From an uncultured Clostridiaceae bacterium (GTDB lineage: Bacteria > Bacillota > Clostridia > Ch29), in the NCBI GenBank assembly GCA_964508195.1, contig CAZDSH010000001.1, positions 131,351 through 195,350 on the forward strand: a stretch of DNA of 64,000 nt, given 5' to 3'. Below are positions 1 through 14,952 of this stretch, one piece after another. The first letter of the stretch is position 1, and every line of letters begins with the position of its first letter. The notes beneath the pieces are model-generated. The model did not search any database. It worked only from the letters and a program-made list of their open reading frames with translations, and was not told where the DNA came from. Made by a program: the position numbers and the translations under genes.

Positions 1-203
1 GCCCTTATTACCTTTTCGTCCCGCACTATTATTCCTGTAGTCCTTTCGGCGATCATTATATCGCCATACGCTACTAAAGCGGTATCCGGCGCTTTATTTC
101 TAAGGCCCGTTACGATTCTTGCTATTATGGCCATAAATATTATAAGAATTATAAACCTTATATAGCCCCTTCTTCTTTTAGTCTGTTGTTTTTTATCCCC
201 CAT
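1..203 (-). CDS. Partial CDS. It is the N-terminal part of a membrane-anchored hypothetical protein, and the gene runs off the left edge of the window.
   Basis: ATG at 203..201 on the minus strand with GGAGAG about 7 nt upstream. Translation MGDKKQQTKRRRGYIRFIILIIFMAIIARIV... shows a basic N-terminus followed by a hydrophobic helix. The frame stays open to position 1. Confidence 0.35.
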   Translation of the reverse strand, partial: MGDKKQQTKRRRGYIRFIILIIFMAIIARIVTGLRNKAPDTALVAYGDIMIAERTTGIIVRDEKVIR

Positions 204-304
204 GACGTCACTCTCCGTTTATAACATCAATGTATAATTCTTCATCCTTCGCCATTTTCCTGCCACGGAATTCTTTATTGTAAATTCTGTCCTCGATACA
301 CGAC

Positions 305-336
305 AAAAAAGGTACACCCCCCGGGTGCATCCTTTT
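305..336 (-). terminator. Rho-independent terminator-like hairpin. It is probably bidirectional and sits downstream of the 402..716 gene.
   Basis: AAAAAA, then GGTaCACCC ccc GGGTGcATCC, then TTTT. On the minus strand the stem is followed by TTTTTTG. Confidence 0.4.
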
Positions 337-401
337 CGCTCTGTACCGGGAACGTGTACCTTCTTTACTGAACTAATTTGCTCTGTTAATATTTTAATAA
401 T

Positions 402-716
402 TCAATCAAAATAGTTTTTGCCCATCTCGGATAATAGTCTGTAGCTTTCAACTAATTGTACGGCTAACATCACTTTCTCGCCGCTATACTCCGCTATAAG
501 GTCTGTAAACCCATCATCCTTCCTGTCATAGACCTCTTTGAGCAGCGGATTGCTTTCTATTTTGAATTTTATGCCTTTGAGTACATCCCTCGCCTCTGAC
601 GCAGATAATACCATATCCTTCGTGTTCACACCCAAACTGAATACCCCCTTGCAATAGTTTCCAGCACCTTTTAAATTATACATAGGGCCTGGAATTCCTC
701 TTGTAATTATATACAA
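402..716 (-). CDS. Hypothetical protein of 104 aa.
   Basis: Six-frame ORF. No family is recognisable from the sequence. A terminator hairpin lies downstream. Confidence 0.35.
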   Translation of the reverse strand: MYIITRGIPGPMYNLKGAGNYCKGVFSLGVNTKDMVLSASEARDVLKGIKFKIESNPLLKEVYDRKDDGFTDLIAEYSGEKVMLAVQLVESYRLLSEMGKNYFD

Positions 717-892
717 AATTATTGCAATTTATGATATAAAAAGACTTAAGGTAGGCTTATACGTTCTAAATATCAATTTATAAATACATTCCCAGGCTTT
801 GTTGACCATATATTGGATTATATAGGAAACAAGCAAAAACCGGTTGAATCTAACGATGAAATGTGTTATATTATTAGATGTCGTCGAGGTAC

Positions 893-969
<77 letters not shown>

Positions 970-986
970 GTATAAAACATATAAAG

Positions 987-1017
987 GCCGCTTATCCCTG
1001 TAGATAAGCGGCTTTTG
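987..1017 (+). terminator. Rho-independent terminator after tRNA-Pro.
   Basis: Perfect 10-bp stem GCCGCTTATC/GATAAGCGGC, loop CCTGTA, then TTTTG. Confidence 0.7.
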
Positions 1018-1079
1018 CTATTATAAATTTAAAACTACGTTGTGTTTGACCATATGAAAGGTTATATCCATAATTGACA

Positions 1080-2396
1080 TCATTTTTGCTGATATATATT
1101 TTTACATTCAGTTTCCTTTACAAAGGCTGAACTTATAAGGGATACCAAAACCGCCAAAGCGCACAATGTCAGGGCCTTCGTGTAAGCGACCTGGGGATAA
1201 ATCCTTACGCCGTCTATTATGCGGCCGGACCAATTTAAATCAAGCACGTAACCCATAAGGGGTTGCAATAAGGACGGGCCTAATAAACCACCTATGTTTA
1301 GAACGCCCACAGCCATCCCGGAAATGTGGGGCGGGTTAACTTCCTTTGCCAGTGCCCAGGTAACAATATATCCTGTAGAGGAGAACCCTAACAAAAACAA
1401 AAGGGGATAAAGAACGCCTATAGGCGGTTTACCGCCGTTCCATAGTATCAATATTAACCATAGACCTAAATTTATAGCACATAGTCCTATAAGGGGCTTT
1501 TTTCTTTTTCCTATTTTATCGGAAACAGTACCCGTGGTAAAAGCGCCAACCATTACTCCTAGGGTAACAATCATTATATAGGACGACGCTTTTATTTTGT
1601 CCAACCCATAGACCGCCATAATATATGGTACACCCCACATGCCTCTGAAGGATAGTATCGCCCCGGAAAGCCCCGCATAGATTAAAAGACCCACCCAAGA
1701 CAATTTATTCGCCGTTATGATTTTTATGCTTTCTAATATTTTTATTTCCTTAGCGGAGGTTTTTACGTCTTTGTTTCCCGTACCCGTTAATGCCGGTAGC
1801 CCGATATCCTCGGGATTGTTTCTCACTAGGGTATAATTTAGTACTGCTACTACAAGGGAGATAGCCCCAATACCTAAAAACACAGTTCTCCAGCCTAAAT
1901 TCATCACTGCCAGGGCTAAGGGGATACCCGCTAACAGTCCCCCGGTATTGCCTAGGAACGCAGTGAGCCCTGATATTGTGCCGAATTCACTTTCCTTGAA
2001 CCATTGGGATTGAACCTTTAATATAGCCACGAATACTACTGATACGCCGAGCCCTACTAAAAACCTGCCTAAGTAGGCCGTTGCTAGGCCTTTAGCCAGC
2101 CCGAATATCACCGAACCCGTACCTGCTATTAGGGTGCCGGTACTTACGGTTATCCTAGCACCCAGGGTATCCGCCAAAATCCCCGTAGGTAGTTGCATGA
2201 ACATGTAGACATAGAAAAATATTGCCCCGAGATTACCAAGGGCCGCTCCGGTAACACCGAATTCGGCCATGAGATTATCCGCCACCACTCCCACCGCTAT
2301 GCGATGGAAAAATACGATTATATAAGCGAGGCATACAGCCCCCCATACCAGCCACCGATACCCATACTTCTTTGTCGTATAAGACCTGCTTTGCAA
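1080..2396 (-). CDS. MFS transporter, of the organic-acid / acid-sugar permease type.
   Basis: 438 aa with about 12 hydrophobic segments. MFS-like motifs GxLADxLGxR and GxxLxGxG are present. It is adjacent to acid-sugar catabolic genes. Confidence 0.75.
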   Translation of the reverse strand: MQSRSYTTKKYGYRWLVWGAVCLAYIIVFFHRIAVGVVADNLMAEFGVTGAALGNLGAIFFYVYMFMQLPTGILADTLGARITVSTGTLIAGTGSVIFGLAKGLATAYLGRFLVGLGVSVVFVAILKVQSQWFKESEFGTISGLTAFLGNTGGLLAGIPLALAVMNLGWRTVFLGIGAISLVVAVLNYTLVRNNPEDIGLPALTGTGNKDVKTSAKEIKILESIKIITANKLSWVGLLIYAGLSGAILSFRGMWGVPYIMAVYGLDKIKASSYIMIVTLGVMVGAFTTGTVSDKIGKRKKPLIGLCAINLGLWLILILWNGGKPPIGVLYPLLFLLGFSSTGYIVTWALAKEVNPPHISGMAVGVLNIGGLLGPSLLQPLMGYVLDLNWSGRIIDGVRIYPQVAYTKALTLCALAVLVSLISSAFVKETECKNIYQQK

Positions 2397-2426
2397 GACC
2401 TTTCCCCCTTACCCCTTCGTTCCTTA

Positions 2427-3716
2427 TTAGTACGATATTTTCATGCGTTCCATAGCCCTATTGAAGAAATCCTTTTCGCCAAAATTGCCGGATTTTAATA
2501 CTAAGCCTACATCATCCCTATGCTCAGGAATTAATATCGGGATACCGGGGGATACGGTTTCCCCTATGGAAAAGACGTTATAGCCCAGCCCCTTCAATAC
2601 GGCCCCGGAGGTTTCTCCTCCGGCTATGATTATTCTACTATAACCCTTTTCAACTGCCCTTTGACCTATCTTTGCAAAGGTATCCTCGATTAGGACGGAT
2701 ACCCTATCATGGTTTATCCGTGCTTTAACACGGTCTATATCCCCATCAAAACTGTATACTAGTACGTCTTCATCCCCATTGCTAGAAATATGCTCCCATA
2801 GATCCTCTAATCTTTGTTCGCCCTTTAACAGTTTCTCAGGAACTATTTTAACGGCATAACCACCTTTTTTTATATAATCATTGATTTGGCCTACAGTAGT
2901 AACTGAACAACTACCCGATAAAATGATTCCTTTGCCGTCCTTCGTCCCTTGCACACGTTTCCCATGTTTTACTGTGGTTGTGCCGTACTTTCTGGCCAAT
3001 TCATAGGCGAGCCCGGAACTTCCCGTCAGTAACGGTAAATCCCCAAATAGATCAATGAGCCTTCCGGCATGATTTTCGTTATAATGGTCCGGGATCAGAT
3101 AAAAATGATCCCTTACCCTTTTATCAATATTATTGATAATACCCTTGATACTGTTCCTATCTTTATTTATCATCCTATCAGTAAATACGTAGGATTTGTA
3201 CTTGCCCTGGGACCTCATCAATTCAGGTATACTAGCCGACCACATAGGTGTCAGGGGATGATCCTTCATAGGGCTTTTGTTAAGGGGAACCCCGTCTACA
3301 TATAAAAGGCCCTTCTTAACCTCCCGGCCGTTAACGGGCAACCCCGGGGAAACAACAGTATACTTGATGTCGAAGGTTTCAAGTAAAGCATCGATCACTG
3401 GGCCTATATTCCCCGTTTTTGTTGAATTAAAAGTAGAACAGTATTTAAAGAACAACTGGCCGCATCCCAAAGATTTTAATCCTTTGAACGCATCTAAGGA
3501 TTTCCGAACAGCTATTTCCGGCTCATCGGTCCTGGTTTTAAGTGCTATTACAATGCACTGAACGTCTTTCCCCGGTTTAAAGTCATCCCTTAGTATACCG
3601 TTTACTAGGATAACGTTAAGCCCCCCGAGGGAGAAAAATGAGGCAATATCACTTGCACCGGTAAAATCATCCGCAACGCATCCGATTACCAGGCTGTTTT
3701 TATATCCTGTTTTCAT
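2427..3716 (-). CDS. Four-carbon acid sugar kinase family protein, OtnK/YgbK-like, with DUF1537 and DUF1357-type domains.
   Basis: N-terminal GCVADDFTGASD motif, which is characteristic of 3-oxo-tetronate kinase-like proteins. Length is 429 aa. Confidence 0.7.
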   Translation of the reverse strand: MKTGYKNSLVIGCVADDFTGASDIASFFSLGGLNVILVNGILRDDFKPGKDVQCIVIALKTRTDEPEIAVRKSLDAFKGLKSLGCGQLFFKYCSTFNSTKTGNIGPVIDALLETFDIKYTVVSPGLPVNGREVKKGLLYVDGVPLNKSPMKDHPLTPMWSASIPELMRSQGKYKSYVFTDRMINKDRNSIKGIINNIDKRVRDHFYLIPDHYNENHAGRLIDLFGDLPLLTGSSGLAYELARKYGTTTVKHGKRVQGTKDGKGIILSGSCSVTTVGQINDYIKKGGYAVKIVPEKLLKGEQRLEDLWEHISSNGDEDVLVYSFDGDIDRVKARINHDRVSVLIEDTFAKIGQRAVEKGYSRIIIAGGETSGAVLKGLGYNVFSIGETVSPGIPILIPEHRDDVGLVLKSGNFGEKDFFNRAMERMKISY

Positions 3717-3778
3717 TGTACTCCGTCCGCCTTTACTCCTTTATTCGACCCGGAACAGTTACTAAAAAGCTAACTTGT

Positions 3779-4603
3779 TTATATATTAGAACCCATAGAT
3801 GACCGCGGATATTCTGCATCCGCCTGTCGGAACAAATTTAAACAGCGTCTTCCATCGCCGTCTAGATCCTTTGTATGGGCCTCTATGCTCATAGTTTTAT
3901 CATAGCCCCCGGCCTTGGCATCGTGTATCAGCCGTTTTAAAAGGGGATAATCCACCTTTTTTAAATAACCCCGGGAATAGTTTTCTAGGTTTGTGCTTAT
4001 ATGCAAATGCTTTACATAGGGCATCGCGTAGGAAAGATCGTAAAGGTCTTCACCCATCACCATAGCATGATAATAGTCTAGCACTATATAAAGATTTGGC
4101 AATTCCAGTTCCTTTACTAGCTCCACTGCCTCGGGGGTAGTGTTAATATAATCGCAGGCATACTTATGAACCGCTTCCAACAGTACTCTTATCCCCTTTG
4201 GCTCAGCTACCTCGCATACAATAGCGAGGGACTCCTTCAACTGTTTTCGGGCTTCATCCAGGGGGAAGGCTACTGGCAACCTTCGTGCCGCCGGTGCCCC
4301 GATGCCTATGTTTTTGATACCTAGGGCATAGCCCCTATTACATATCCCGTCAGCGTATTTTCTTGTCCTCTCCCTATCGTAACCCGGGCCAATCATGGGA
4401 ACGTGGGCATCACAATAATCGTTGAATCCATAACAAGGGAATCCTTCCCTGTGGTACAAACCTCGGAAGGCCGAAAACTCTCGGTCTGATAGGCCCATGA
4501 TTTGCCTACCCGATAGTTCAATGTAATCAAAGCCGATCTCTTTTATTCCTAGATAATTTTTCGTCGTGCCGCAACATCCAAACTCCATTTTTATAGCCCC
4601 CAT
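3779..4603 (-). CDS. Sugar phosphate isomerase/epimerase with a xylose-isomerase-like TIM barrel (OtnI-like).
   Basis: 274 aa. The fold is recognised by pattern: conserved E/H/D metal ligands are spaced as in the AP-endonuclease-2 / xylose isomerase TIM family. It sits next to the OtnK-like kinase. Confidence 0.6.
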   Translation of the reverse strand: MGAIKMEFGCCGTTKNYLGIKEIGFDYIELSGRQIMGLSDREFSAFRGLYHREGFPCYGFNDYCDAHVPMIGPGYDRERTRKYADGICNRGYALGIKNIGIGAPAARRLPVAFPLDEARKQLKESLAIVCEVAEPKGIRVLLEAVHKYACDYINTTPEAVELVKELELPNLYIVLDYYHAMVMGEDLYDLSYAMPYVKHLHISTNLENYSRGYLKKVDYPLLKRLIHDAKAGGYDKTMSIEAHTKDLDGDGRRCLNLFRQADAEYPRSSMGSNI

Positions 4604-4687
4604 GCGTATTCAAGGTTTTTTATATGCTCTTTTTCGCTAATCCCTGGCCATCTTTTTGCGCGCTATTGCCCGTAATTACTTCCCCTG

Positions 4688-5629
4688 TTATTTATATAGG
4701 CACTTCGATATCTGCAGAAAATCCCTATCGCGTTTTTTGATAGCCTTTTCCGCCTTTCCCTCAGCATAGCTATAAAACCCTCTACCGCTTTTAGTACCGT
4801 GATCCCCGGCCTTTACCAAATCAGTAAGCAGTTTCTGCGGTTCCTTTACATCGCTTAGATCGTCGAACAGATAGTCCGCAATGTTCTTAAATACGTCGAG
4901 GCCGCCTAGATCCGCGATCTCGAAGGGACCCAGGCAAGCGTATCGCATGCCTAAGCCGTATTTAAATACATCATCCACATCCTCCGTCGATGCAATACCG
5001 CTTTCCACAATATGCATTGCTTCCCGTAAAACACAAAACTGTAACCGGTTTAAGATAAAGCCCCGGGCTTCTTTTTTAAGAATAACGGGCTTTTTACCGA
5101 TTTTAGTCGCTATATCGGCAATTAACTGGATAGTTTTCCCGTCGGTTTTGGCCCCGTGTATGATTTCAACTAGGGGAACGATATGGGGTGGGTTCACCCA
5201 GTGCATACCCCCAAACCGCTCCGGCTTTTTCACGGCCTCGGCTATCTTCGTAATGGAAAGGCCCGATGTATTAGTAGTTAGAACTGCGGATAACGGGGCG
5301 AGTGTTGAAACCATTGCCCAAAAAGAAAGCTTTGTCTCCAAATCCTCTACTATAGCCTCTATAACAAAATCTGCATCTCTAAAACAGTCCAAATCCTTAG
5401 AAAACCTTATCCTTTCCCTAAGTTCCATGGATTCATCGCGGCTGATATCCCCTTCTTTAATGGAGACATCTTGGTTGATAGCTATTGATTTTCGCCCCTT
5501 TTCCAGGCTGTTTTCAGATCTGCCGTAGAGAGTCACACAATATCCTCCCTTTGCAAAGATCTGGGCTATTGAAGCCCCCATAGTGCCGGTGCCGGCGATG
5601 ACTATCCTGTTTATATCCCCTAGTTCCAT
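4688..5629 (-). CDS. NAD-dependent dehydrogenase of the 3-hydroxyacyl-CoA dehydrogenase family.
   Basis: Rossmann motif IVIAGTGTMGASIA near the N-terminus when translation starts at the internal Met (MELGDINR...). A C-terminal 3HCDH-like region follows. The ORF track begins earlier, at 5710. Confidence 0.65.
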   Translation of the reverse strand: MELGDINRIVIAGTGTMGASIAQIFAKGGYCVTLYGRSENSLEKGRKSIAINQDVSIKEGDISRDESMELRERIRFSKDLDCFRDADFVIEAIVEDLETKLSFWAMVSTLAPLSAVLTTNTSGLSITKIAEAVKKPERFGGMHWVNPPHIVPLVEIIHGAKTDGKTIQLIADIATKIGKKPVILKKEARGFILNRLQFCVLREAMHIVESGIASTEDVDDVFKYGLGMRYACLGPFEIADLGGLDVFKNIADYLFDDLSDVKEPQKLLTDLVKAGDHGTKSGRGFYSYAEGKAEKAIKKRDRDFLQISKCLYK

Positions 5630-5690
5630 ACAAATCTCCTCCTCAAAAACACCGGTATACGCTTTGCAATTTTTATAATTCCGATAGCGG

Positions 5691-6998
5691 TTATCCCTTA
5701 AAGATGCCATTATTATAATGTAATTGAAACAAATTCAACAATCTCTTATTTTTTATAACGCTTACCGGTATTAAAAAACATATCTCCACGACCCCCGGCA
5801 GACGACAGATATAAGTTGTTCCCGTGATCGTCGCCCTTACGAGGACCTCCTCGGTGCCCATACCGGTAAAGAAGGCCGCCCGTTCAACTGCACATTGGAT
5901 AGCATCGTTAAGATTGTCCCCTGTCCCGATAACGCTAATAGGATAAAAGGTATCATCAATCTCCGCATCCCCTATCCTATGGGCTATTTCGTTTACCCTT
6001 TCCATCTCTTCCATCGAAAAGGGCTTTGCGAGAAATGGTATATCCTCCTTCGACGGCAACAATATAGGTCCTTTTATTGAAAGGGCCTTTATTAAATGGA
6101 CGGTTATCGTTACCTTTGCACTGACATCCGTGGTATGTCCCGCCAGTTCGCCGTCCCCTTGCATCCCGTGCACATCCCCGACAAAAACTCCGCCGCCTTT
6201 TATCTTTACCGGTGCTAATAGGATACTCCCTTCCCTAAGCCTGGGGCTGTCCACATGGCTATCGGTACACGCCTCCCCTAGGCCCCCATTGTCCTGTACA
6301 CCTTTGAAATGTTCCATAGCCAGCCTGCGTATACTGTCCCCGGCATTGCTGTTGCTAGGCATATCTATTTCAGGAACAGTTCCGATATTGCCTACAAAGG
6401 GGCGGCACCGGGCAGGTAAACCGCTAATATCGGCGGCAGCTATATGCAAGGACGAATGTTGACGGGCCTCCTTGGGCAACCCTGCGTAGTTGCTGTATTG
6501 TTTTGCTATATCCTGTGCCGCCCCCTTAGAAACCGTCAACCCCATTGTCTTGTTTTCATCAAATAACATGGTAAAGCCGTAGGTCATATTAAAAGGAGCT
6601 GCAGCGGCCCCACAATTATCGCATTTTATAGCATCTGTACCGGTCCCCTCCACATGGGTGCCAGGGTTTAGAATACCGCAACCGGGGCAAAGGCTCTCGG
6701 AAAAAGGATTCTTATTATATCTTTCGGGTATGAGTTCGTGAACTCCTGAACACGATGCTTCCGACATTATTTCAATCCCTTTAACGTGCAACGCCAAAAC
6801 ATCGCCTGCTTCGGCCCCCTTTACTTCAAGGGGCCAGGTGACCTCATGCCCGGCCCCGACGGAGGGCGTTATCATCGGCCCCCAACAACCGGGGGCAGTA
6901 TAACATACCAACGTTGTACCGCTTTCGATCGGCCCAAGCATCCTAAGGGATGGCCCGATTTTATCAGTTTGTTTAGAAATGTTCGTCACTTTGTTCAA
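5691..6998 (-). CDS. Acetamidase/formamidase (FmdA/AmdA) family protein.
   Basis: EVKGAEAGDVL and HGMQGDGE motifs as in the FmdA_AmdA family. The true start may be an internal Met. Confidence 0.55.
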   Translation of the reverse strand: MNKVTNISKQTDKIGPSLRMLGPIESGTTLVCYTAPGCWGPMITPSVGAGHEVTWPLEVKGAEAGDVLALHVKGIEIMSEASCSGVHELIPERYNKNPFSESLCPGCGILNPGTHVEGTGTDAIKCDNCGAAAAPFNMTYGFTMLFDENKTMGLTVSKGAAQDIAKQYSNYAGLPKEARQHSSLHIAAADISGLPARCRPFVGNIGTVPEIDMPSNSNAGDSIRRLAMEHFKGVQDNGGLGEACTDSHVDSPRLREGSILLAPVKIKGGGVFVGDVHGMQGDGELAGHTTDVSAKVTITVHLIKALSIKGPILLPSKEDIPFLAKPFSMEEMERVNEIAHRIGDAEIDDTFYPISVIGTGDNLNDAIQCAVERAAFFTGMGTEEVLVRATITGTTYICRLPGVVEICFLIPVSVIKNKRLLNLFQLHYNNGIFKG

Positions 6999-7092
6999 TG
7001 TTCTGCCTCCTAAATGCTCGGTTGATTGCTCAGATCATTACCTATAACCGTAGAATATAGTATTACCCCATAGATTTATCCTGAAGTCCTTT

Positions 7093-8601
7093 TTAGACCT
7101 CCTCCGCTTTTTTACGCTCCTTTTTATATGCGTAGAAAGCAGTAAATATTGATATAGCAGCTAACACAAGGAACAAAACAGAAAAGGGCCTTGTGACAAA
7201 AATACTTAAGCTGCCGTTAGATAAAACCAGAGCTTGGCGCAGGGAACTTTCCAAAGTCGGTGTCAGAACCATTGAAATTATTAATGGGGCCTGGGGAAAT
7301 TCAAACTTTTGCATAAAATATCCTAAAATGCTCCCCAAAAACATTACCCACACACTGTATAGATTATTCCCGTACACATAAGAACCAACAATACACATAG
7401 GAGCAACCACTGCGAACAGAATATGTTTTGGAATATCTATAATTCTTACAAAAAGTTTAATGGCGATCTTTGCTATAGCAAACAATAACACCCCTGTAAG
7501 GAGCATTCCGATAAATATGGCGTACACCGTTGGGCCGGACTTTTGGAACACTAGGGGACCTGGTGTAAGCCCCGCCAACATAAACCCTCCCAACAATATA
7601 GCCGTCGTCGCATCACCGGGTATCCCAAGGGCGATCATTGGTATAAGGGCCGAGCCGCATACTGCATTATTAGCCGCTTCCGGTGCTGCAACACCTTCAT
7701 AAAAGCCCGTACCGTACTTTTCCGGATGTTTAGATGTCTTCTGGGCCAACCCGTAAGCGGCAAAGGCGGAGGCCGTTGCCCCTATGCCAGGGAGGGCACC
7801 GAAAACAGAACCTATTATTGCTGACTGTGCTAGCAGTTTGCGTATCGAAAAGAATTCTTTGAAGGATAACCTAGAATTTGTAATATCTTTCTCGTCAGCG
7901 GTAATCGATGAATGTAAATCCTTTTTCATACCCCGTTCTATCTGGATATATACTTCAGACATTGCAAACAGACCGATTAACAACGGTATATATGGTATCC
8001 CTTCTACCAGATATTGCTGCCCAAAAGTAAATCTTAAAGTGCCAAGCATTGGATCGAGTCCCACGGTAGCCAAAAGTATCCCAAAAACGGCCACAATCAA
8101 TCCCTTTGTTATGGACTTCCCCGATATAGCCGCTACAATAGTTAAGGATAACAGGATCAACGAAAAGTATTCCGCCGGACCAAACTTCAACGCCAGCCTA
8201 GCGATAGGTTCAGCGAACAAAATCAATAGGATTATGCCAAAGGCGTCCCCGGCAACTGAAGCGTATATAGCCGTATCCAGCGCCTTCCCAGCCTGACCGT
8301 TCTTTGCCATTTTATATCCGTCTAATACCGTGGCAGCCGCGGCGGGTGTTCCCGGTGCATTAATAAGAATCGATGATATGGAACCGCCGTATATGCCGCC
8401 GCGATATAATCCGATTAACAGCATCATAGATAAGACCGGCGGCAGGTAATAGGTTATAGGCAACAAAATTACGATGGCCATAGATGCGCCTAGTCCCGGT
8501 ATAGCACCGAGTATAATGCCCCCGGTAATGCCTAACGCTGCGAATGCGAAATTTTCCCATCTAAATAGAAGTACTAAAGCCTTTGCGATTACTCCTAGCA
8601 T
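7093..8601 (-). CDS. tctA: Tripartite tricarboxylate transporter, large permease TctA.
   Basis: 502 aa polytopic membrane protein whose sequence is typical of TctA (DUF112). It lies in a tctC-tctB-tctA arrangement. Confidence 0.8.
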   Translation of the reverse strand: MLGVIAKALVLLFRWENFAFAALGITGGIILGAIPGLGASMAIVILLPITYYLPPVLSMMLLIGLYRGGIYGGSISSILINAPGTPAAAATVLDGYKMAKNGQAGKALDTAIYASVAGDAFGIILLILFAEPIARLALKFGPAEYFSLILLSLTIVAAISGKSITKGLIVAVFGILLATVGLDPMLGTLRFTFGQQYLVEGIPYIPLLIGLFAMSEVYIQIERGMKKDLHSSITADEKDITNSRLSFKEFFSIRKLLAQSAIIGSVFGALPGIGATASAFAAYGLAQKTSKHPEKYGTGFYEGVAAPEAANNAVCGSALIPMIALGIPGDATTAILLGGFMLAGLTPGPLVFQKSGPTVYAIFIGMLLTGVLLFAIAKIAIKLFVRIIDIPKHILFAVVAPMCIVGSYVYGNNLYSVWVMFLGSILGYFMQKFEFPQAPLIISMVLTPTLESSLRQALVLSNGSLSIFVTRPFSVLFLVLAAISIFTAFYAYKKERKKAEEV

Positions 8602-8707
8602 ATTATTCCTCCGTTCTTTTTTCTACATCTGAGGACCGCTGTGTATAGAGCGGATGTATTTTAATCCCTATTAACCCTGTTTTTATACTATCGTTAAAAT
8701 TCCGTTT

Positions 8708-9193
8708 CTAGGGCAACGGAACACGCATTAAATAGAAAAACACATAATAAACCATTCCGGTAGAAATCCCCGGGATAAGAATTAACCGTTTCCATTTACG
8801 CTCACCGTTTATCACCATAATAAGGGCTATTAAAGCGATGGTTACTATAATATAAGAGATCCTTCCCATAAATAAAATTGATAGCGCTGTCACTGCCATA
8901 CAAAGGATCATGCGCCATTGATCCTGCGTCAGGCCACCTTTTCTTTCCCCTTTATTTTCTCGGTCCCCGGGCTCCTCCTTCGAAACCGTGGGCTTTTCAA
9001 TTATAAGGAACAGTGACAAAACCGCTAGGCCTATTACGCATATCGATGGCAAAAACCTCGGCCCCATTAACATAGAATAGTTTTTTGGCACTTGGATATT
9101 ATTTGGCATTACGTAAAAATAAAATAGAACAGATAGCACAAATAAACTGAAGCCGAAAACAACGTTAGGACGTTTCAGTATGTCTTTGTTCAT
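8708..9193 (-). CDS. tctB: Tripartite tricarboxylate transporter, small subunit TctB.
   Basis: 161 aa with 4 TM segments, positioned between tctC and tctA. Confidence 0.65.
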   Translation of the reverse strand: MNKDILKRPNVVFGFSLFVLSVLFYFYVMPNNIQVPKNYSMLMGPRFLPSICVIGLAVLSLFLIIEKPTVSKEEPGDRENKGERKGGLTQDQWRMILCMAVTALSILFMGRISYIIVTIALIALIMVINGERKWKRLILIPGISTGMVYYVFFYLMRVPLP

Positions 9194-9214
9194 GCCCTTT
9201 CACCCCCCTATGGG

Positions 9215-9249
9215 CATGTGCGCCCACAAGAACCTTGCGGGCGCACATG
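9215..9249 (-). promoter_or_regulatory. Intercistronic GC-rich hairpin between tctC and tctB.
   Basis: Perfect 11-bp inverted repeat CATGTGCGCCC ... GGGCGCACATG with a further 4 bp of inner pairing. It sits between the tctC stop and the tctB ribosome-binding site. Confidence 0.6.
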
Positions 9250-9267
9250 TTCTTAGTATTGTTGTTG

Positions 9268-10266
9268 CTATTCGATCATCCCAATTTCCTTTAACACCGT
9301 TGCATATTTTTCGTATTCCGATTTAACAAATTCATAGGTTGCGTCGCCCTCCATAAATGCAGGGGCGATCATCATGCTGCTCATCGCCTTTAGGAAGGTT
9401 TCGTCATTCATCGCTTCTTCGAAGGCATCCTGAAGCTTATTGCGTACCTCCTTGGGCAGTCCCTTAGGCGCAACTATCGTCAAAAACGCAGGGGCATCAA
9501 CGGGATACCCGAGCTCCCGAAGGGTTTTTATTTCCGGTAGATCCGGGCTGGCCTCTGAAGAAAGAATAGCTAGCACCCGCAGGTTTCCGGACTCCACATG
9601 GGGCATGTCCTCTCCGGCGAAGGCACCGAAGTTTACGTGTCCGCCAAGGAGACCTGCCACTGATTTCGCACCATCGCCAAAGGGTACAGCTTCCCATTGT
9701 ACATCTTCATGTTTGCCTAACTGCTCAACGGCAAGCATGGGGGATGAGCCCGGCGTGGAAACACCGTATTTAAGTTTGCCGGGGTTCTCCTTGGCAAAGG
9801 CTACCAATTCATCAACGGATGTAAAGGGAGAATCCGCGGGTACAGACAGGGTATAGACATAAACACCGTAACGACAGATAAAATCAAAATCTCCGATGGG
9901 ATTATAGGGCACTTCCCTCAGGTGGGGAGCGGTAGCCCCTGCTGAAGAAACCATCACACCGAGGGTGTATCCATCGGCCTTCGATTTTGCAATAGCCGAT
10001 AGGCCCACGGCGGATGCGCCCCCTTCTCTGTTTTCCACCGCAACAGGCTGTCCCAAAACTTTACCGACTGCCTCTACTAGCGGGCGAACTGTGAGATCCG
10101 TAGAACCGCCAGCACCGGTAGGACAAATAAATTGTATCGCTTTTTCCGGGAATGGGTTCTCCTTCTCCCCCTGCCCCCCCGGAGCCGGAGCTGTAGACGT
10201 ACACCCAATTAAACCAATGCTAATAACAGATACCAGTAACAACAATAACCAGGTTTTTTTATACAT
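9268..10266 (-). CDS. tctC: TctC-family (Bug) periplasmic substrate-binding lipoprotein.
   Basis: Lipoprotein signal LIGC-TS. Sequence typical of the TctC/Bug family. Confidence 0.8.
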   Translation of the reverse strand: MYKKTWLLLLLVSVISIGLIGCTSTAPAPGGQGEKENPFPEKAIQFICPTGAGGSTDLTVRPLVEAVGKVLGQPVAVENREGGASAVGLSAIAKSKADGYTLGVMVSSAGATAPHLREVPYNPIGDFDFICRYGVYVYTLSVPADSPFTSVDELVAFAKENPGKLKYGVSTPGSSPMLAVEQLGKHEDVQWEAVPFGDGAKSVAGLLGGHVNFGAFAGEDMPHVESGNLRVLAILSSEASPDLPEIKTLRELGYPVDAPAFLTIVAPKGLPKEVRNKLQDAFEEAMNDETFLKAMSSMMIAPAFMEGDATYEFVKSEYEKYATVLKEIGMIE

Positions 10267-10420
10267 ATTAATCCTCCCTCATTTTGATATCATATATAAT
10301 CATCCCATATTGTTTCCATTGCTATTGTTTCTGTTGTTGCTTTTTATTTTTCCCATGAAGCGAGTCCCTTAGTACGTTGAAAGTAGTTAAATACTCCGGA
10401 AGTTTACCCCTACCTAGCAA

Positions 10421-11215
10421 TTAAAGCCCCTTCTTCATGTCCTCTAATTGTTGTTTAAAGGCCCGTAGCATTAAGGATGCATCACAGGGGGATCCTGTTA
10501 TCATACTAGCTCCGGCATCGATCAATTCCTTTGCTGTCCGGTTATAAGCGGAATGGCCTGCGGGTATCCCTAGCTTAACGGAGGTATCCATGGCCTTTGC
10601 CTTTGAAAAAATACCATCTATTGTTTCCGCTACCTTCGGATGATCCAATTCACCGAGTACGTCTAAGGATCTAGATAGGTCCGCGGGCCCTATAAATGCA
10701 AAGTCAAGCCCCTCAACCGTTAAGATATCTTCTACCATCTGCGCAGATGCGCTATCTTCAATCATTGTGCCAACTAAAATATCCTCATTTGAAATACGGA
10801 TGTGTTCCTTAAAGGGCACCGTCGAGTAATCAGCGGCCCTGGAGCCGGTAAATATACCGCGGTTACCATAGGGACGATAATATACAGCATCTATCAGCTT
10901 TTCGACGTCCTCCCTGTCCTTAGTACGGGGTATCATTATACCCTGCACCCCGGTTTCGAGCACCCTTAGGATGGTCTTCGAGTTGTTCTCCGGTACCCTT
11001 ACCATCGTTGTAATGCCTGTGGCGTCCCCGGCCCTGACCATTTCCTGGACCAACTGCAACGAAAAAGTTGAATGTTCCATATCAATAATAATGTAATCAA
11101 ATCCTGCATAGGCCGCCACTTCTATCATGGTAGGATCGGAAAAACCTAGCCCTGCAAAGGTTCCGAATATTGGTTTGCCTGCATCTAACATTGTTTTTGC
11201 TTTGTTTTTTTTCAT
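10421..11215 (-). CDS. HpcH/HpaI family aldolase (2-keto-3-deoxy-acid aldolase).
   Basis: The N-terminal half (KTMLDAGKPIFGTF ... DYIIIDMEHS) matches the HpcH/HpaI family. The internal Met start is preferred over the ORF-track start at 11236. Confidence 0.75.
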   Translation of the reverse strand: MKKNKAKTMLDAGKPIFGTFAGLGFSDPTMIEVAAYAGFDYIIIDMEHSTFSLQLVQEMVRAGDATGITTMVRVPENNSKTILRVLETGVQGIMIPRTKDREDVEKLIDAVYYRPYGNRGIFTGSRAADYSTVPFKEHIRISNEDILVGTMIEDSASAQMVEDILTVEGLDFAFIGPADLSRSLDVLGELDHPKVAETIDGIFSKAKAMDTSVKLGIPAGHSAYNRTAKELIDAGASMITGSPCDASLMLRAFKQQLEDMKKGL

Positions 11216-11340
11216 CTTAGTTTTATCCCCTTCCATTGATCTTTTAGTGGTTTGATCGCTTGTTTCATAACTCGCTCCTTTTATGGTTGATGCCCCTAGG
11301 CCCTTTGGGATGATTCTTGTTATCCTTTTAGATTTTTCAG

Positions 11341-12102
11341 TTAACCGCTATAACCCATCTTTGTAGATATTTTATGTGAATATTCGGTAATCAGTTTTTC
11401 AAATCTTTTGATCTTATCATCATCGAATGTATGTTTAAGCCCCGCTATGGCCATCCCGGCCACAGCCTTTCCCCGATGATCGAATATCGGTGCGCCGAAG
11501 GCTAGGACACCTATATCCACCTCCTCATCACTAACAGAGTACCCATGTTTTTGTATGGTCTTAATCTGGGATAACAATTCGTCAACGGATAATGTCTTGT
11601 GCGTAAAGGAATCATGTCTCATATCCGTTATTATTTCCTTTATATCCGCCGGGTCTAGATGGGCGAATAGAGCCTTTGCTGCAGCGCCGCCATAGAATGG
11701 GGCGATTTTCCCTATATCACAATAAAAACGTACATTTTCCCGTCCATCCACACGATCTATGAATATAAAATTATTTTTTGTCCTTATGCCTAATGTTACG
11801 GTTTCGCCACAGAGATAGGCCAATTCCTTAATAATCGGGTGGGCTACCTCGCGTAAATCCAAATCCTTTAAAATAAAATTACCTAATTCAAGTAACCCAA
11901 AACTTAGTCTGTACTTCCTAGTTTCGGGGTTTTGTTCCACGAGGTTCCTTTCCTTTAAAGAATATAAAATCCTATAGACTGTCCCCTTATTTATCCCTGT
12001 TAATTTACTGATTTGGTTTAGTCCTATTTCCCTACAATTATGATCCTTCCATACAAAAAGTATGTTTAGAACATTGTTAGCCGAGGTAAGTGGTTTCAAC
12101 AC
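11341..12102 (-). CDS. IclR family transcriptional regulator.
   Basis: N-terminal winged HTH (ISKLTGINKGTVYRILYSL) and a C-terminal effector domain. Length is 253 aa. Confidence 0.8.
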   Translation of the reverse strand: MLKPLTSANNVLNILFVWKDHNCREIGLNQISKLTGINKGTVYRILYSLKERNLVEQNPETRKYRLSFGLLELGNFILKDLDLREVAHPIIKELAYLCGETVTLGIRTKNNFIFIDRVDGRENVRFYCDIGKIAPFYGGAAAKALFAHLDPADIKEIITDMRHDSFTHKTLSVDELLSQIKTIQKHGYSVSDEEVDIGVLAFGAPIFDHRGKAVAGMAIAGLKHTFDDDKIKRFEKLITEYSHKISTKMGYSG

Positions 12103-12237
12103 CTCACCCCCTCGTATGTATGGTTACATATAGCAACCACTGGTTATTTTTCTACGTTTTGATTTAATTATAGTCCAATTTTCATTCGTTGTCAATTAAA
12201 TAAGTTTTGCATTGTCATACAAAGCCCCTTTGGAAAT

Positions 12238-12262
12238 AAAAAAAGGACCCCTTAAAGGTCCC
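12238..12262 (-). terminator. Rho-independent terminator downstream of spoIVA.
   Basis: On the minus strand: GGACC-TTTAAGG-GGTCC followed by TTTTTTT. Confidence 0.6.
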
Positions 12263-12269
12263 CAATAGC

Positions 12270-13748
12270 TTAAAGTATTATACAGATTAGTCCGCCGCTA
12301 CCCTCATTGACTATCCTTTGTAATGTAAGCTGTAGCTTATCCCGGGCATCGTCGGGCATCTTTAGCAGTTTATTTTGCAATTGTTCCCGTACCAGATCGT
12401 ATAAAGATTTGCCGAATATGTTCGATTCCCATAATTTCGATGGGTCGTTTTCGAATTCCGAGATCAAATAATTGAGCAATTCTTCGCTCTGTTTCTCCGT
12501 ACCTACTAGGGGAGATACCTCGGTCTTTATATCGGCCCTTATCATATGTATTGAGGGGGAGCTCGCCCTTAACTTAACGCCGAACCTACTGCCCTGTTTA
12601 AAAATTTCCGGCTCCTCGAGGATCAATTCGTCAAGCTTCGGTGATACGACACCGTAACCCTCCTCCCAAACATCCTTTAAAGCCGAGGCAACCCTGTCAT
12701 ATTGTTTTTTAGCCTCAGACAGTTCACCTACAAGACCCAATAGCTGATGCTCGCTTTCCAGGGGGTAATCGGTAATTTCTTCGATTATGTTATAAAATAA
12801 TCCCGCCTCGGTTTCAATCCTAATATGCACAATTCCTTCCCCTAGGTTTATATTTTCAAATTCCGACCTTTTAGCGAAATCATACGCGTCGAGGGCCTTC
12901 GGTATTCCCTCGGTATCCTTTAACCTTTTTATATCAGCGGTACTTGATTGAACCGCCTTTATTATCCCCTGCCTGAGCCAGTGATCAAAATCCAGGCCCT
13001 CTATCCATTGGGGTAGATCTATATGTATTTCAGTAACCGGGAATTCGAACAATACCCTTTCCAGTATATAATGAACATCGTCCATGGACATATTCATACA
13101 ATCTACTACACATACGGGTACTTCGTATTTTGCTTCCAAGGACTCCGCTATATTCCTGGTTTCCTCCGCCCTGGGATGGGTACTGTTTAAAAGTATTACG
13201 AAGGGTTTGTTCAGATCCTTTAACTCCTTTACAACCCTTTCCTCCGCCTGTATATAGTTTTGCCTGGGTATCTCGGTAATGGAGCCGTCAGTAGTTACCA
13301 AAAACCCTATAGTCGAATGATCGTTTATTACTTTCCTTGTGCCTAGCTCCGCAGCCTCCTCAAAGGGAATCTTGTTTTCGAACCAAGGCGTTGATACCAT
13401 CCTGGGCATTTCGTTCTCTAAATGCCCTATAGCTCCTTTTACCATATAGCCGACACAATCCACTAGCCTCACGCGGAACCTCGCATTGTCCTTTAATACT
13501 ATTTCGACGGCTTCATTAGGTACGAACTTAGGCTCGGTAGTGGAAATAGTACGCCCCGCCCCGCTTTGCGGCAGCTCATCCTTAGCCCTTTCCTTTATAT
13601 AGGGATTATCTATATTCGGTAGTACCAATAAATCCATAAACCTTTTGATGAACGTGGATTTACCTGTCCGTACGGGCCCCACTATTCCAATATAAATATC
13701 CCCCTGGGTTCGTTCTGCTATGTCTTTATATATATTGAATTCTTCCAC
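12270..13748 (-). CDS. spoIVA: Stage IV sporulation protein A, the spore-coat morphogenetic ATPase.
   Basis: N-terminus FNIYKDIAERTQGDIYIGIVGPVRTGKSTFIKRFM is near-identical in pattern to Bacillus SpoIVA. Length is 492 aa. GTG start with AAAAGGGGGGA upstream. Confidence 0.92.
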   Translation of the reverse strand: MEEFNIYKDIAERTQGDIYIGIVGPVRTGKSTFIKRFMDLLVLPNIDNPYIKERAKDELPQSGAGRTISTTEPKFVPNEAVEIVLKDNARFRVRLVDCVGYMVKGAIGHLENEMPRMVSTPWFENKIPFEEAAELGTRKVINDHSTIGFLVTTDGSITEIPRQNYIQAEERVVKELKDLNKPFVILLNSTHPRAEETRNIAESLEAKYEVPVCVVDCMNMSMDDVHYILERVLFEFPVTEIHIDLPQWIEGLDFDHWLRQGIIKAVQSSTADIKRLKDTEGIPKALDAYDFAKRSEFENINLGEGIVHIRIETEAGLFYNIIEEITDYPLESEHQLLGLVGELSEAKKQYDRVASALKDVWEEGYGVVSPKLDELILEEPEIFKQGSRFGVKLRASSPSIHMIRADIKTEVSPLVGTEKQSEELLNYLISEFENDPSKLWESNIFGKSLYDLVREQLQNKLLKMPDDARDKLQLTLQRIVNEGSGGLICIIL

Positions 13749-13871
13749 GTCTTTATCCCCCCTTTTTACTTAATGGAACATGCCTTAACATTATATATAT
13801 ATGAGGGGAAAACCGTATTATTACTAAAAAAAATACGTCCCCCACGCCCCCTGGACCGCCACCTATTTCAG

Positions 13872-13913
13872 ATTAAAAAAAAACAAAAAACCCCGGGGTA
13901 GGATCCGCCCGGG
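13872..13913 (-). terminator. Rho-independent terminator downstream of gpsA.
   Basis: On the minus strand: CCCGGG, a loop of about 10 nt, CCCGGG, then TTTTTTTGTTTTTTTT. Confidence 0.6.
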
Positions 13914-13935
13914 ATTTTATGTAGAATCTGATCCT

Positions 13936-14952
13936 TTACCAGCCTTCGGCAATTTCTTCAGTCTCATGGGTTTTACTCCTTAGCATCAGATTTTCTACGG
14001 ATTTTTTTACGTCACCCTTTTTAAATAAAACGCTATATATCTCCCTAGTTATGGGCATATCTATATCATGAAGTTCTGAAAGTTTGTAGGCGGCCTCAGT
14101 AGCCCTTATGCCCTCTACTACCATGTGTGTACCCCCTAATACTTCATCAAGGGGCTTACCTTCGCCTATCTGTATACCGGCCCTTCTATTACGACTATGC
14201 ATACTGGTACAGGTAACTATAAGGTCCCCTATACCGGTAAGACCTGCAAAGGTTGAAGCCTTGGCCCCCATCTTTACGCCTAACCTTGCTATTTCTACTA
14301 TTCCCCTAGTCATAATAGCTGCCTTAGTATTGTCGCCGTACCCTAGGCCGTCTGAGATCCCCGCGCCTAAAGCGATTACGTTTTTTAATGCGCCGCCTAT
14401 TTCGACCCCTATTATATCGGGGTTAGTATAGACTCTGAATGTCGGGGCCATAAATAGATCCTGTACGTATTCCGCCATTCCCCGTTCCCTGGAGGCAACA
14501 GCCACCGTTGTCGGCATACCCTTTCCAACCTCCTCTGCATGGCTTGGCCCGGACACAGTAGCTACACTGTTTTTTGGAAAGGTTCCCTTTATGATCTCCG
14601 ACATACGTTTAAGGGTATCTGTATCCAACCCCTTAGCTACGTTGATTAGCCTTTGTTTTGGTTCGATCAAGGGGTCCAGCACCTTTATGACATCCTTTAA
14701 TCCATGGGAGGGAACGGCAAACACGATAGCCTCGCATCCCCTGATACTTCCCTTTATATCACCTATCGGGTTAATGTTTTTACCCAGCTTAACCCCGGGT
14801 AAATATGTTGTATTTTCCCCGGTTTTTTTTATCTTCTCTAAAAGGTCCCTATTACGAACCCATAGATTTAATTCTATACCTTTGCCGTCGAGCACCGTAG
14901 CAAGGGCAGTGCCCCAACTTCCGGCGCCTAATATTGCAATTTTTGTATTCAT
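13936..14952 (-). CDS. gpsA: NAD(P)H-dependent glycerol-3-phosphate dehydrogenase.
   Basis: N-terminal KIAILGAGSWGTALA. Length is 338 aa. Followed by plsY as in other Firmicutes. Confidence 0.9.
   Translation of the reverse strand: MNTKIAILGAGSWGTALATVLDGKGIELNLWVRNRDLLEKIKKTGENTTYLPGVKLGKNINPIGDIKGSIRGCEAIVFAVPSHGLKDVIKVLDPLIEPKQRLINVAKGLDTDTLKRMSEIIKGTFPKNSVATVSGPSHAEEVGKGMPTTVAVASRERGMAEYVQDLFMAPTFRVYTNPDIIGVEIGGALKNVIALGAGISDGLGYGDNTKAAIMTRGIVEIARLGVKMGAKASTFAGLTGIGDLIVTCTSMHSRNRRAGIQIGEGKPLDEVLGGTHMVVEGIRATEAAYKLSELHDIDMPITREIYSVLFKKGDVKKSVENLMLRSKTHETEEIAEGW

Follow-up and report, generated by a model that had tools for sequence, protein, structure and literature searches.

A conserved TIM barrel–dehydrogenase pair of gut Clostridia in a putative acid-sugar operon of an uncultured Clostridiaceae bacterium

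We analysed a 64,000-nucleotide stretch of the genome of an uncultured Clostridiaceae bacterium (GenBank assembly GCA_964508195.1, contig CAZDSH010000001.1, positions 131,351 to 195,350; this whole stretch is referred to as the window) and describe a ten-gene catabolic island within it. The island consisted of ten intact, full-length open reading frames (ORFs), all on the minus strand, which spanned positions 1080–12102 and had complete Pfam domain coverage. Their start codons were taken from genes called independently on a metagenome contig of identical sequence (L001; other loci also carry L numbers). The upstream genes encoded an IclR-type regulator, an HpcH/HpaI-family aldolase, a TctCBA transporter and an FmdA-like hydrolase, and the four downstream genes a dehydrogenase of the 3HCDH family, a TIM barrel of the xylose isomerase fold, a kinase and an MFS permease. 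The dehydrogenase and the TIM barrel form an uncharacterised pair that is conserved in gut Clostridia. This pair is the generalisable result, and the window operon is one idiosyncratic instance of it. Judging from the sequences, we give an even chance to the reading that the four downstream genes form a clostridial variant of a tetronate-type pathway within a ten-gene catabolic operon. An earlier, sequence-only reading of the window had named a domain for these genes; every one of them was found by Pfam where it had been placed, and no island protein fell in an unrelated family. The downstream genes were:

4688..5629, minus strand: NAD(P) dehydrogenase of the 3HCDH family (Pfam 3HCDH_N, 6e-55; 3HCDH, 1e-25)
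3779..4588, minus strand: TIM barrel of the xylose isomerase fold, predicted metal-dependent isomerase/epimerase (Pfam AP_endonuc_2, 3e-28)
2427..3716, minus strand: DUF1537 kinase of the 3-oxo-tetronate kinase (OtnK) type (Pfam SBD_N, 4e-51; NBD_C, 4e-30)
1080..2396, minus strand: MFS permease (Pfam MFS_1, 6e-39)

Dehydrogenase and TIM barrel

The dehydrogenase kept the catalytic Ser, His and Asn residues and both the Rossmann and the C-terminal domain. Two residues of this family, Lys56 and Asn221 in the numbering of Clostridium butyricum Hbd, are contacts to coenzyme A (CoA) and are missing in the free-acid enzyme TfD (Zhou et al., PMC10470551). In the window enzyme, Lys56 was replaced by Asp and Asn221 by Gly together with a three-residue insertion. 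All TIM-linked homologues (23/23) had Ile or Leu in place of Lys56 and Gly at position 221, and FHMPC dehydrogenase was likewise without Lys56 and Asn221. The latter, a free-carboxylate enzyme, was also the best solved match of the window protein (4om8), which scored below the cut-off of every NCBIfam Hbd/HADH model. Because the catalytic residues were kept and the two CoA-contact residues lost, the dehydrogenase probably oxidises a free hydroxy acid and not a CoA ester.

By its sequence, the TIM barrel belongs to a small clostridial family, with only 61 word-sharing homologues. It had the AP_endonuc_2 fold with a Glu-Asp-His-Glu metal site, and this tetrad (E138, D171, H196, E236), which is that of ketose epimerases and isomerases, was kept in the alignment of all TIM clades, as were E180 and R206. 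A GCCG motif at the first strand (residues 5 and 6) as well as Cys59 and Cys145 were conserved in the dehydrogenase-linked subclades (alignment A1), and the clade found in canonical tetronate clusters (see below) kept only Cys5 of these residues. The four cysteines (5, 6, 59 and 145) are possible subclade-specific metal or redox residues. The protein had a remote likeness to ketose 3-epimerases (E about 1e-9), and YgbM (OtnI) was its fifth-best structural match; structural searches with the TIM barrel did not separate an OtnI-like from an epimerase-like function. It may be an isomerase, a C2/C4 epimerase or a ketose-phosphate epimerase as in the Ula pathway. The sequence-only reading had counted two signature enzymes of the tetronate pathway in the island. 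By the hidden Markov model (HMM) criterion this held for the kinase and failed for the TIM barrel, which reached 35.8 bits against the OtnI model NF043033 (cut-off 325).

Conservation of the pair in gut Clostridia

Genome and metagenome collections were scanned with the TIM family alignment (A1), which returned 20 and 80 loci, respectively; ORFs in related loci were labelled by BLAST against references verified with Pfam or NCBIfam. Almost all returned loci came from Oscillospiraceae, Ca. Limivicinus, Dysosmobacter, Lachnospiraceae and human-gut assemblies. In each of three independent contexts from metagenomes, the TIM homologue adjoined a 3HCDH protein 49–51% identical to that of the window, compared with approximately 34% for ordinary Hbd-like proteins. 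The dehydrogenase lay within 4 kb of the TIM gene in 17 of the 47 non-redundant TIM loci, which is an undercount because many of the remaining contigs were short. Paired TIM orthologues were 36–55% identical to the window protein and the adjoining dehydrogenases 47–52%; these loci came from Oscillospiraceae, Ca. Limivicinus, Dysosmobacter and human-gut metagenomes. In the Oscillospiraceae metagenome-assembled genome RGIG1653 (L021:7396-9096, JAFQAX010000111.1), the two were joined in a single ORF of 566 amino acids with AP_endonuc_2, 3HCDH_N and 3HCDH domains, followed directly by a gene for an IlvD-type dehydratase. This natural fusion suggests that the two enzymes catalyse consecutive or coupled steps. 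The sequence-only reading had treated the 3HCDH enzyme as an odd replacement for the usual tetronate enzymes; instead, it is a conserved, once even fused, partner of the TIM barrel in Clostridia.

The remaining partners of the pair varied and comprised a kinase of the OtnK type together with a class II aldolase resembling OtnC, a beta-keto-acid cleavage enzyme (BKACE), an FAA-family hydrolase and an IlvD-type dehydratase. The kinase and OtnC-like aldolase were found at L028, L032 and L083, with OtnC-like scores of 165–183 bits (cut-off 250). The gene order at L032 and L083 was kinase, class II aldolase, TIM barrel, dehydrogenase, IlvD; at L028 it was kinase, GntR regulator, TIM barrel, dehydrogenase, IlvD, class II aldolase. 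The BKACE gene was placed between the TIM barrel and the dehydrogenase in relatives of the window pair, and its product came near the triacetate-lyase model (400 vs 430 bits). Among the loci compared, the order dehydrogenase, TIM barrel, kinase without an aldolase or dehydratase occurred in the window only.

The similarity of the BKACE protein to triacetate lyase led us to consider the TIM barrel as a ring-opening dihydrophloroglucinol cyclohydrolase. This candidate was rejected, since the known enzyme belongs to the 'cyclase' family (PMC10470551).

Some features of the pair-linked loci are noted here in their own right. IlvD-type dehydratase genes stood beside the pair at L012, L015, L020, L021, L028, L032, L043-L046 and L076-L086, with gaps between an overlap and 20 bp where spacing was checked. 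The two pair-linked dehydratases that were scored passed the true IlvD equivalog (759–767 vs 618 bits), and L012 also contained a bona fide IlvC. These dehydratase genes may be housekeeping ilv genes or sugar-acid paralogues. In Ca. Limivicinus-type clusters, the block of kinase, TIM barrel, dehydrogenase and IlvD genes was followed by a conserved trio (L028:14113-17677, L032:13483-16913), namely a fusion of a PEP_hydrolase-like domain with an AraC-type helix-turn-helix domain, a UPF0261 protein and a second PEP_hydrolase-like protein.

A distant TIM clade, 34% identical to the window protein, comprised 13 loci from human-gut assemblies (L090-L102). One of them (L096:9098-16474) had the order beta-hydroxyacid dehydrogenase, TIM barrel, OtnK (455 bits), OtnC-like aldolase, DtnK-like protein, PdxA and GntP, which we take to be the layout of characterised tetronate clusters, with the TIM family at the OtnI position. 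The TIM proteins of such canonical clusters also failed the OtnI model (38–46 bits vs 325; approximately 41 in the L096 clade), so that the curated model apparently misses the clostridial isomerase. The tetronate link drawn by the sequence-only reading was thus upheld, as the window kinase passed the OtnK equivalog and distant members of the TIM family occupied the OtnI position in canonical gut clusters.

Kinase and permease

The kinase contained the ADDFTGA motif (VIGCVADDFTGASD) that had been read from the sequence as the mark of an OtnK-type enzyme, and it confirmed that assignment with a full-length match to NCBIfam NF043035 (384.4 bits, cut-off 350). By the same HMM criterion, it is the only signature tetronate enzyme among the island proteins. 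Its nearest solved structures were HI1011 (1yzy), 3dqq and 5dmh. The neighbourhoods of its three nearest homologues were unrelated to each other and to the window. The MFS gene began 30 bp past the kinase gene. The best NCBIfam models of its product were the D-galactonate transporter (top) and phosphoglycerate transporters, both far below cut-off.

The closest kinase homologue (57% identical) was found on a Logan contig of run ERR8135915 (L009). It was surrounded by genes for an RpiR/SIS regulator, a sigma-54 activator of the PrpR type, a LarA-like protein and subunits of a class I fumarase/tartrate dehydratase, and further by an Ldh_2 protein, an MR_MLE enzyme, a 2HCT transporter and an aconitase. 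Such a setting of an 'OtnK', apparently a hydroxy-dicarboxylate cluster, suggests a wider substrate range in the kinase clade.

Proposed pathway

Several of the alternative partners of the pair, OtnK/OtnC, BKACE and FAA hydrolase, are known to act on beta-keto or beta-diketo acids. Such partners, together with the loss of the CoA contacts, suggest that the substrate of the dehydrogenase is a free acid, in which it would oxidise a hydroxyl group in beta position to a carboxylate or ketone; the resulting alpha-hydroxy-ketone would then be handled by the TIM barrel. Since the genes immediately downstream encode an OtnK-type kinase and an MFS permease of the acid-sugar type, the four genes are most simply read as ones for uptake, oxidation, isomerisation or epimerisation, and phosphorylation. 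We hypothesize that transcription of the operon starts at the consensus promoter that precedes the IclR gene and that the permease imports an acid sugar of four to six carbon atoms. The dehydrogenase would oxidise the hydroxyl group beta to the carboxylate of the free acid and yield a 3-oxo acid. The metal-dependent TIM barrel would move the keto group between C2 and C3 or epimerise the neighbouring carbon, and the kinase would phosphorylate the terminal hydroxyl group. The resulting beta-keto-acid phosphate would lose CO2, either spontaneously or by an enzyme encoded outside the window, and form a ketose phosphate, which for a four-carbon substrate would be dihydroxyacetone phosphate. The upstream half of the operon most likely serves to import and trim another carboxylate substrate, related to the first, and would be controlled by the same IclR regulator.

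Several observations weigh against this pathway. The sequence-only reading had noted that two enzymes that normally accompany the others, OtnC and PdxA2, are absent. This was borne out for both: tblastn with clostridial class II aldolase proteins gave no match to an OtnC-type decarboxylase anywhere in the 64 kb of the window, and Pfam and NCBIfam searches found no PdxA-type dehydrogenase among the ten island proteins. In relatives, by contrast, the clusters of kinase, TIM barrel and dehydrogenase genes that were given a detailed annotation (L028, L032) do contain a decarboxylase. The two kinase homologues closest to the window protein, with 57% and 50% identity, occurred in non-tetronate contexts, so that substrate specificity within the kinase clade is uncertain. 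An OtnI-like isomerase is redundant if the dehydrogenase yields the 3-oxo acid directly. In a neighbour-joining tree, the window TIM barrel grouped with the dehydrogenase-, IlvD- and BKACE-linked subclade and not with the kinase-linked one, and the IlvD and BKACE partners of that subclade suggest 2-keto-3-deoxy acid chemistry. Finally, the HpcH, Tct and FmdA-like genes are tied to the module solely by their co-orientation and the absence of terminators.

Precedents bear on the missing decarboxylase. A short-chain dehydrogenase/reductase, L-threonate 3-dehydrogenase, feeds OtnK directly and accepts C4–C6 acids, related clusters without a decarboxylase exist (D-ribonate), and 3-oxo acids decarboxylate spontaneously (Watanabe et al., PMC12994016). 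In view of these precedents, the lack of OtnC is a weakness of the proposed pathway and not its refutation. An OtnC gene may also lie in another part of the genome.

The grouping of the TIM barrel is accommodated by a non-phosphorylative pathway, which we consider unlikely but credible. The dehydrogenase and TIM barrel would act on 2-keto-3-deoxy acid sugars, with oxidation of the 4-hydroxyl group as in routes composed of a dehydratase, a 4-dehydrogenase and a hydrolase. HpcH would replace the hydrolase or BKACE protein and split a 4-hydroxy-2-oxo acid into pyruvate and an aldehyde or hydroxy acid, the kinase would phosphorylate the small product, and the whole operon would be one pathway, into which TctABC would bring a ready-made keto-deoxy or dicarboxylic acid. 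As a family, HpcH enzymes cleave 4-hydroxy-2-oxo acids, and the best NCBIfam matches of the window HpcH were HpaI, GarL and YfaU, albeit below cut-off. Consistent with this alternative, the orthologues with which the window TIM barrel grouped stood beside an IlvD-type dehydratase, BKACE or FAA hydrolase; the order FAA hydrolase, TIM barrel, dehydrogenase, IlvD recurred in L076-L084; and the hydroxyl group oxidised by the 3HCDH-family enzyme TfD is that of a free acid and lies beta to a ketone (PMC10470551). However, no dehydratase was found, with no tblastn match to an IlvD/Edd-type enzyme anywhere in the window. The window HpcH was only 29–30% identical to the HpcH proteins near related clusters and is thus not an orthologous partner. 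Moreover, the kinase passed the OtnK model, and 3-oxo acid sugars are the substrates known for OtnK; the IlvD-type neighbours passed the true IlvD equivalog, so that their sugar-acid role is itself only putative.

The tetronate-type pathway can also be stated more broadly. The pair would then represent an acid-sugar route widespread in gut Clostridia, in which a non-CoA 3HCDH enzyme stands in for LtnD/DenD and a non-orthologous TIM barrel for OtnI. In the window this route would run with no dedicated decarboxylase and would have recruited the tripartite tricarboxylate transporter (TTT), the FmdA-fold hydrolase and HpcH for a conjugated (amide or ester) or dicarboxylic acid sugar without a described pathway. 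In this full form, the claim is quite unlikely to hold.

Comparison with known systems

Four-carbon and related acid sugars are breakdown products of vitamin C, pectin and sugars. Their catabolism has been elucidated only since 2016, for the most part in Proteobacteria, and in E. coli ygbJKLMN is the cluster of the L-threonate/D-erythronate pathway. This pathway has four steps, catalysed by LtnD/DenD, OtnI, OtnK and OtnC (Zhang et al. 2016, as cited in PMC12994016). The window shares with it the OtnK-type DUF1537 kinase, an acid-sugar permease and an AP_endonuc_2 TIM barrel encoded beside the kinase, with the fold and metal ligands of YgbM; distant members of the same TIM family sit at the OtnI position of complete clusters. 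It differs in that its TIM barrel fails the OtnI model, in the family of its dehydrogenase (3HCDH rather than the beta-hydroxyacid dehydrogenase family of LtnD/DenD), in lacking OtnC, in its regulator (IclR, not DeoR or GntR) and in the extra Tct, HpcH and FmdA-like genes.

A bypass of the four-step pathway consists of Ltn3D, 3OtnK and 3OtnC (Watanabe et al. 2026, PMC12994016). Common to the bypass and our proposal are the direct C3 oxidation to a 3-oxo acid that is phosphorylated by OtnK, the promiscuity towards C4–C6 substrates and the possible spontaneous decarboxylation. In contrast to the window dehydrogenase, Ltn3D is a short-chain dehydrogenase/reductase; the bypass needs no isomerase, whereas the window dehydrogenase has the TIM barrel as a conserved partner; and the window has no decarboxylase.

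The anaerobic phloroglucinol pathway with its enzymes TfD and TAL (Zhou et al. 2023, PMC10470551) offers a further parallel. Like the window dehydrogenase, TfD belongs to the 3HCDH family and is without the two CoA-contact residues; it oxidises a free 3-hydroxy acid. Relatives of the window pair have a BKACE protein close to the TAL model encoded between the TIM barrel and the dehydrogenase. The ring-opening enzyme of that pathway is, however, of the 'cyclase' family and not a TIM barrel, and the window encodes neither a BKACE protein nor a phloroglucinol reductase, with a kinase instead. A 3-dehydrogenase and a BKACE protein also occur together in the oxidative deoxyribonate pathway (bioRxiv 10.1101/205583).

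With regard to epimerases, the proposed pathway can be set beside that of Ula proteins. The L-ascorbate/3-keto-L-gulonate route comprises a kinase, a decarboxylase, the AP_endonuc_2 3-epimerase UlaE and the class II aldolase-fold 4-epimerase UlaF. Its kinase (FGGY) and decarboxylase (OMPDC) are of families other than those considered here, and the window has no class II aldolase-fold protein.

Taken as sequence evidence, the pair suggests that the first two steps of acid-sugar catabolism are carried out by different enzyme families in Clostridia of the gut and in other anaerobic members of the group, with a free-acid 3HCDH dehydrogenase closely coupled to a TIM barrel that present annotation models do not take for an isomerase of this pathway. 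If this is true, many gut-genome annotations as 'sugar phosphate isomerase/epimerase' and '3-hydroxybutyryl-CoA dehydrogenase' would be corrected, and the tetronate pathways would gain a new type of dehydrogenase. It would also provide a starting point for finding what the TctABC/amidase/aldolase extension feeds into the pathway.

Upstream half of the operon

The genes upstream of the dehydrogenase gene were:

11341..12099, minus strand: IclR-family transcriptional regulator, first gene of the unit (Pfam IclR_C, 1.5e-37; HTH_IclR)
10421..11215, minus strand: HpcH/HpaI-family class II pyruvate aldolase of an isolated lineage (Pfam HpcH_HpaI, 1.1e-29)
9268..10266, minus strand: TctC-type solute-binding protein, predicted lipoprotein (Pfam TctC, 1.4e-54)
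8708..9193, minus strand: TctB small membrane subunit (Pfam, 2e-20)
7093..8601, minus strand: TctA large membrane subunit (Pfam, 7.4e-147)
5691..6998, minus strand: acetamidase/formamidase-fold hydrolase of a subfamily of approximately 430 amino acids with a CxxC...CxxC insertion (Pfam FmdA_AmdA, 2e-36)

The regulator had its best NCBIfam matches in KdgR and BhcR, both below cut-off. HpcH was assigned to its family with 103.7 bits against PF03328 (gathering score 25) and failed the HpaI, GarL and YfaU equivalogs (score/cut-off 140/369, 131/393, 122/407 and 90/441 bits). An exhaustive HMMER search of 1.8 billion proteins found its nearest representatives at 44% identity or less and gave no functional lead; the closest solved structures were 3qz6 and 4tv5. 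The transporter was complete, with tctC, tctB and tctA together. The signal peptide of TctC, read from the translation, ended in an LIGC lipobox, a Gram-positive lipoprotein signal, and its closest solved structures were Bug/TTT binding proteins.

The hydrolase exceeded the gathering score of PF03069 and kept the family fold and the GDxHxxQGDGE motif; it failed the formamidase FmdA equivalog NF045496 (29.4 vs 500 bits). Its subfamily had four invariant cysteines (CPGCG ... CDNCG, residues 104–129) in an insertion that the Pfam match skipped (alignment A2) and that looks like a zinc ribbon. The subfamily was widespread, with members in Anaerolineae, Burkholderiales, Gammaproteobacteria and Thermovenabulum, none of them characterised. 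The neighbourhoods of five homologues 45–49% identical to the window protein (P0044, P0035, P0009, P0004, P0006) shared nothing with the window; these homologues were encoded near genes for acetyl-CoA synthetase and an MFS protein, 2-oxoacid dehydrogenase or the Calvin cycle, or stood alone.

In 124 loci that were fetched from other genomes and from metagenomes, no homologue of the window Tct, FmdA-like, IclR or MFS genes was present, and the HpcH relatives in these loci were remote (29–30% identical). The gene order of the island was accordingly found in none of them. Full-text literature searches found no description of the ten-gene combination either. It is therefore not a described pathway, as the sequence-only reading had held, and the extension by TTT, amidase and aldolase is so far unique.

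The hydrolase raises the possibility of a conjugated substrate. TctABC would import a carboxylate bearing an amide or ester, the FmdA-fold hydrolase would free an acid sugar for degradation by the dehydrogenase, TIM barrel and kinase, and HpcH would take the other fragment. Such a route would fit the position of all ten genes between one promoter and one terminator, the intact signature motif and fold of the hydrolase, and the presence of two transporters, which could serve the conjugate and the free acid. We nevertheless judge it improbable: the homologues of the hydrolase occur in contexts that are unrelated and point to a generic short-chain amidase, no other fetched locus joins such a hydrolase with Tct, HpcH or the triad of dehydrogenase, TIM barrel and kinase, and no data favour any candidate substrate.

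Predicted transcription unit and genomic setting

The flanking and regulatory features of the island were:

893-969, plus strand: tRNA-Pro(GGG) (Rfam scan)
987..1012, minus strand: intrinsic terminator-like hairpin in the gap between the MFS gene and tRNA-Pro (11-bp stem, −18.5 kcal/mol, z = −4.3)
9215..9249, minus strand: RNA hairpin between tctC and tctB (16-bp stem, 3-nt loop, no U-tract)
12167..12195, minus strand: sigma-70-type promoter TTGACA-17-TATAAT, 5' of the IclR gene (12/12 consensus matches)
12243..12263, minus strand: intrinsic terminator-like hairpin and T-run after spoIVA (9-bp stem, then TTTTTTATTTC)
12270-13748: spoIVA, then gpsA, plsY and der

The perfect sigma-70-type site was the only one in positions 700–12500 and is likely the start of the operon. 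The hairpin at 12243..12263 is predicted to set spoIVA apart from the island, and no convincing intergenic terminator was found inside the unit between the promoter and the hairpin at 987..1012. With one promoter, flanking terminators, no convincing intergenic terminator and gaps of 30–154 bp, the sequence fits a single transcription unit of approximately 11 kb, in which weak internal promoters are possible. The hairpin between tctC and tctB (−32.7 kcal/mol, z = −6.5 vs shuffles) may stabilise or process the transcript and so provide the binding protein TctC in excess. An Rfam scan for riboswitches and leader RNAs found the tRNA only, and no convincing common operator motif was detected in the intergenic regions.

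The absence of partners that are common in relatives could indicate decay or chance, that is, a remnant acid-sugar cluster that lost its decarboxylase and dehydratase and was joined by accident to unrelated transporter, amidase and aldolase genes, with no coherent pathway. Class II aldolase and IlvD partners are indeed missing here, and the combination is unique among the fetched loci. Against this stand the ten full-length ORFs with complete domain coverage, the tight spacing within a single frame of promoter and terminator, the intact catalytic residues of the dehydrogenase, TIM barrel and hydrolase, and the fact that clusters without a decarboxylase are known to work (PMC12994016). We regard such an assemblage as very unlikely.

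The island lay between tRNA-Pro and spoIVA, as the sequence-only reading had placed it. Beyond der followed SpoIIP and a cluster of cell-division and cell-wall genes. With tRNA-Pro, the spoIVA-gpsA-plsY-der genes, SpoIIP and this cluster as its flanks, the island is set in the core chromosome of a clostridial spore former. The sequence-only reading had remarked that accessory DNA is often found at such positions and had offered a horizontally acquired module as one of two readings of the island. The corresponding explanation, a recent foreign island (e.g., from Proteobacteria) inserted by the tRNA-Pro gene, could draw on the adjoining tRNA, the site between core genes, the mildly deviant tetranucleotide usage over the Tct genes (z = −2.3) and the absence of the Tct/FmdA-like/HpcH/IclR set from every fetched clostridial locus. 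In Proteobacteria, clusters of TctABC with IclR and HpcH are common. However, island and window were alike in composition: GC content, GC at third codon positions (GC3) and codon usage were indistinguishable from those of the other 48 ORFs (p = 0.39 and 0.96), and tetranucleotides also matched the window overall, with the one deviation coinciding with hydrophobic membrane proteins. Of the marks of a mobile island (integrase or transposase, att repeats, deviant composition), none was found: the ten genes included no integrase or transposase, and positions 1–14000 contained no att-like direct repeat matching the 3' end of the tRNA. Furthermore, TctC has a Gram-positive lipoprotein signal and the relatives of the triad are all Clostridia. 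Recent transfer is thus highly improbable, although the island may be an ancient acquisition.

The remaining window was ordinary core DNA, with genes for SpoIIP, FtsA, Mur ligases, a PBP, an EPSP-synthase-fold protein and M16 peptidases. A DUF512 radical-SAM-like protein was encoded next to der (16897-18216, minus strand), and an ORF of 474 amino acids (54119-55543, minus strand) had no Pfam match at E up to 1e-8. Seven of the eight proteins that were looked up (SpoIVA, GpsA and five island proteins) were singleton clusters at 90% identity, and the eighth, Der, had no exact-sequence entry in the protein collection. The source lineage, of which the collections contain no closely related sequenced organism, appears to be poorly sampled and was otherwise seen only in run SRR8925798.

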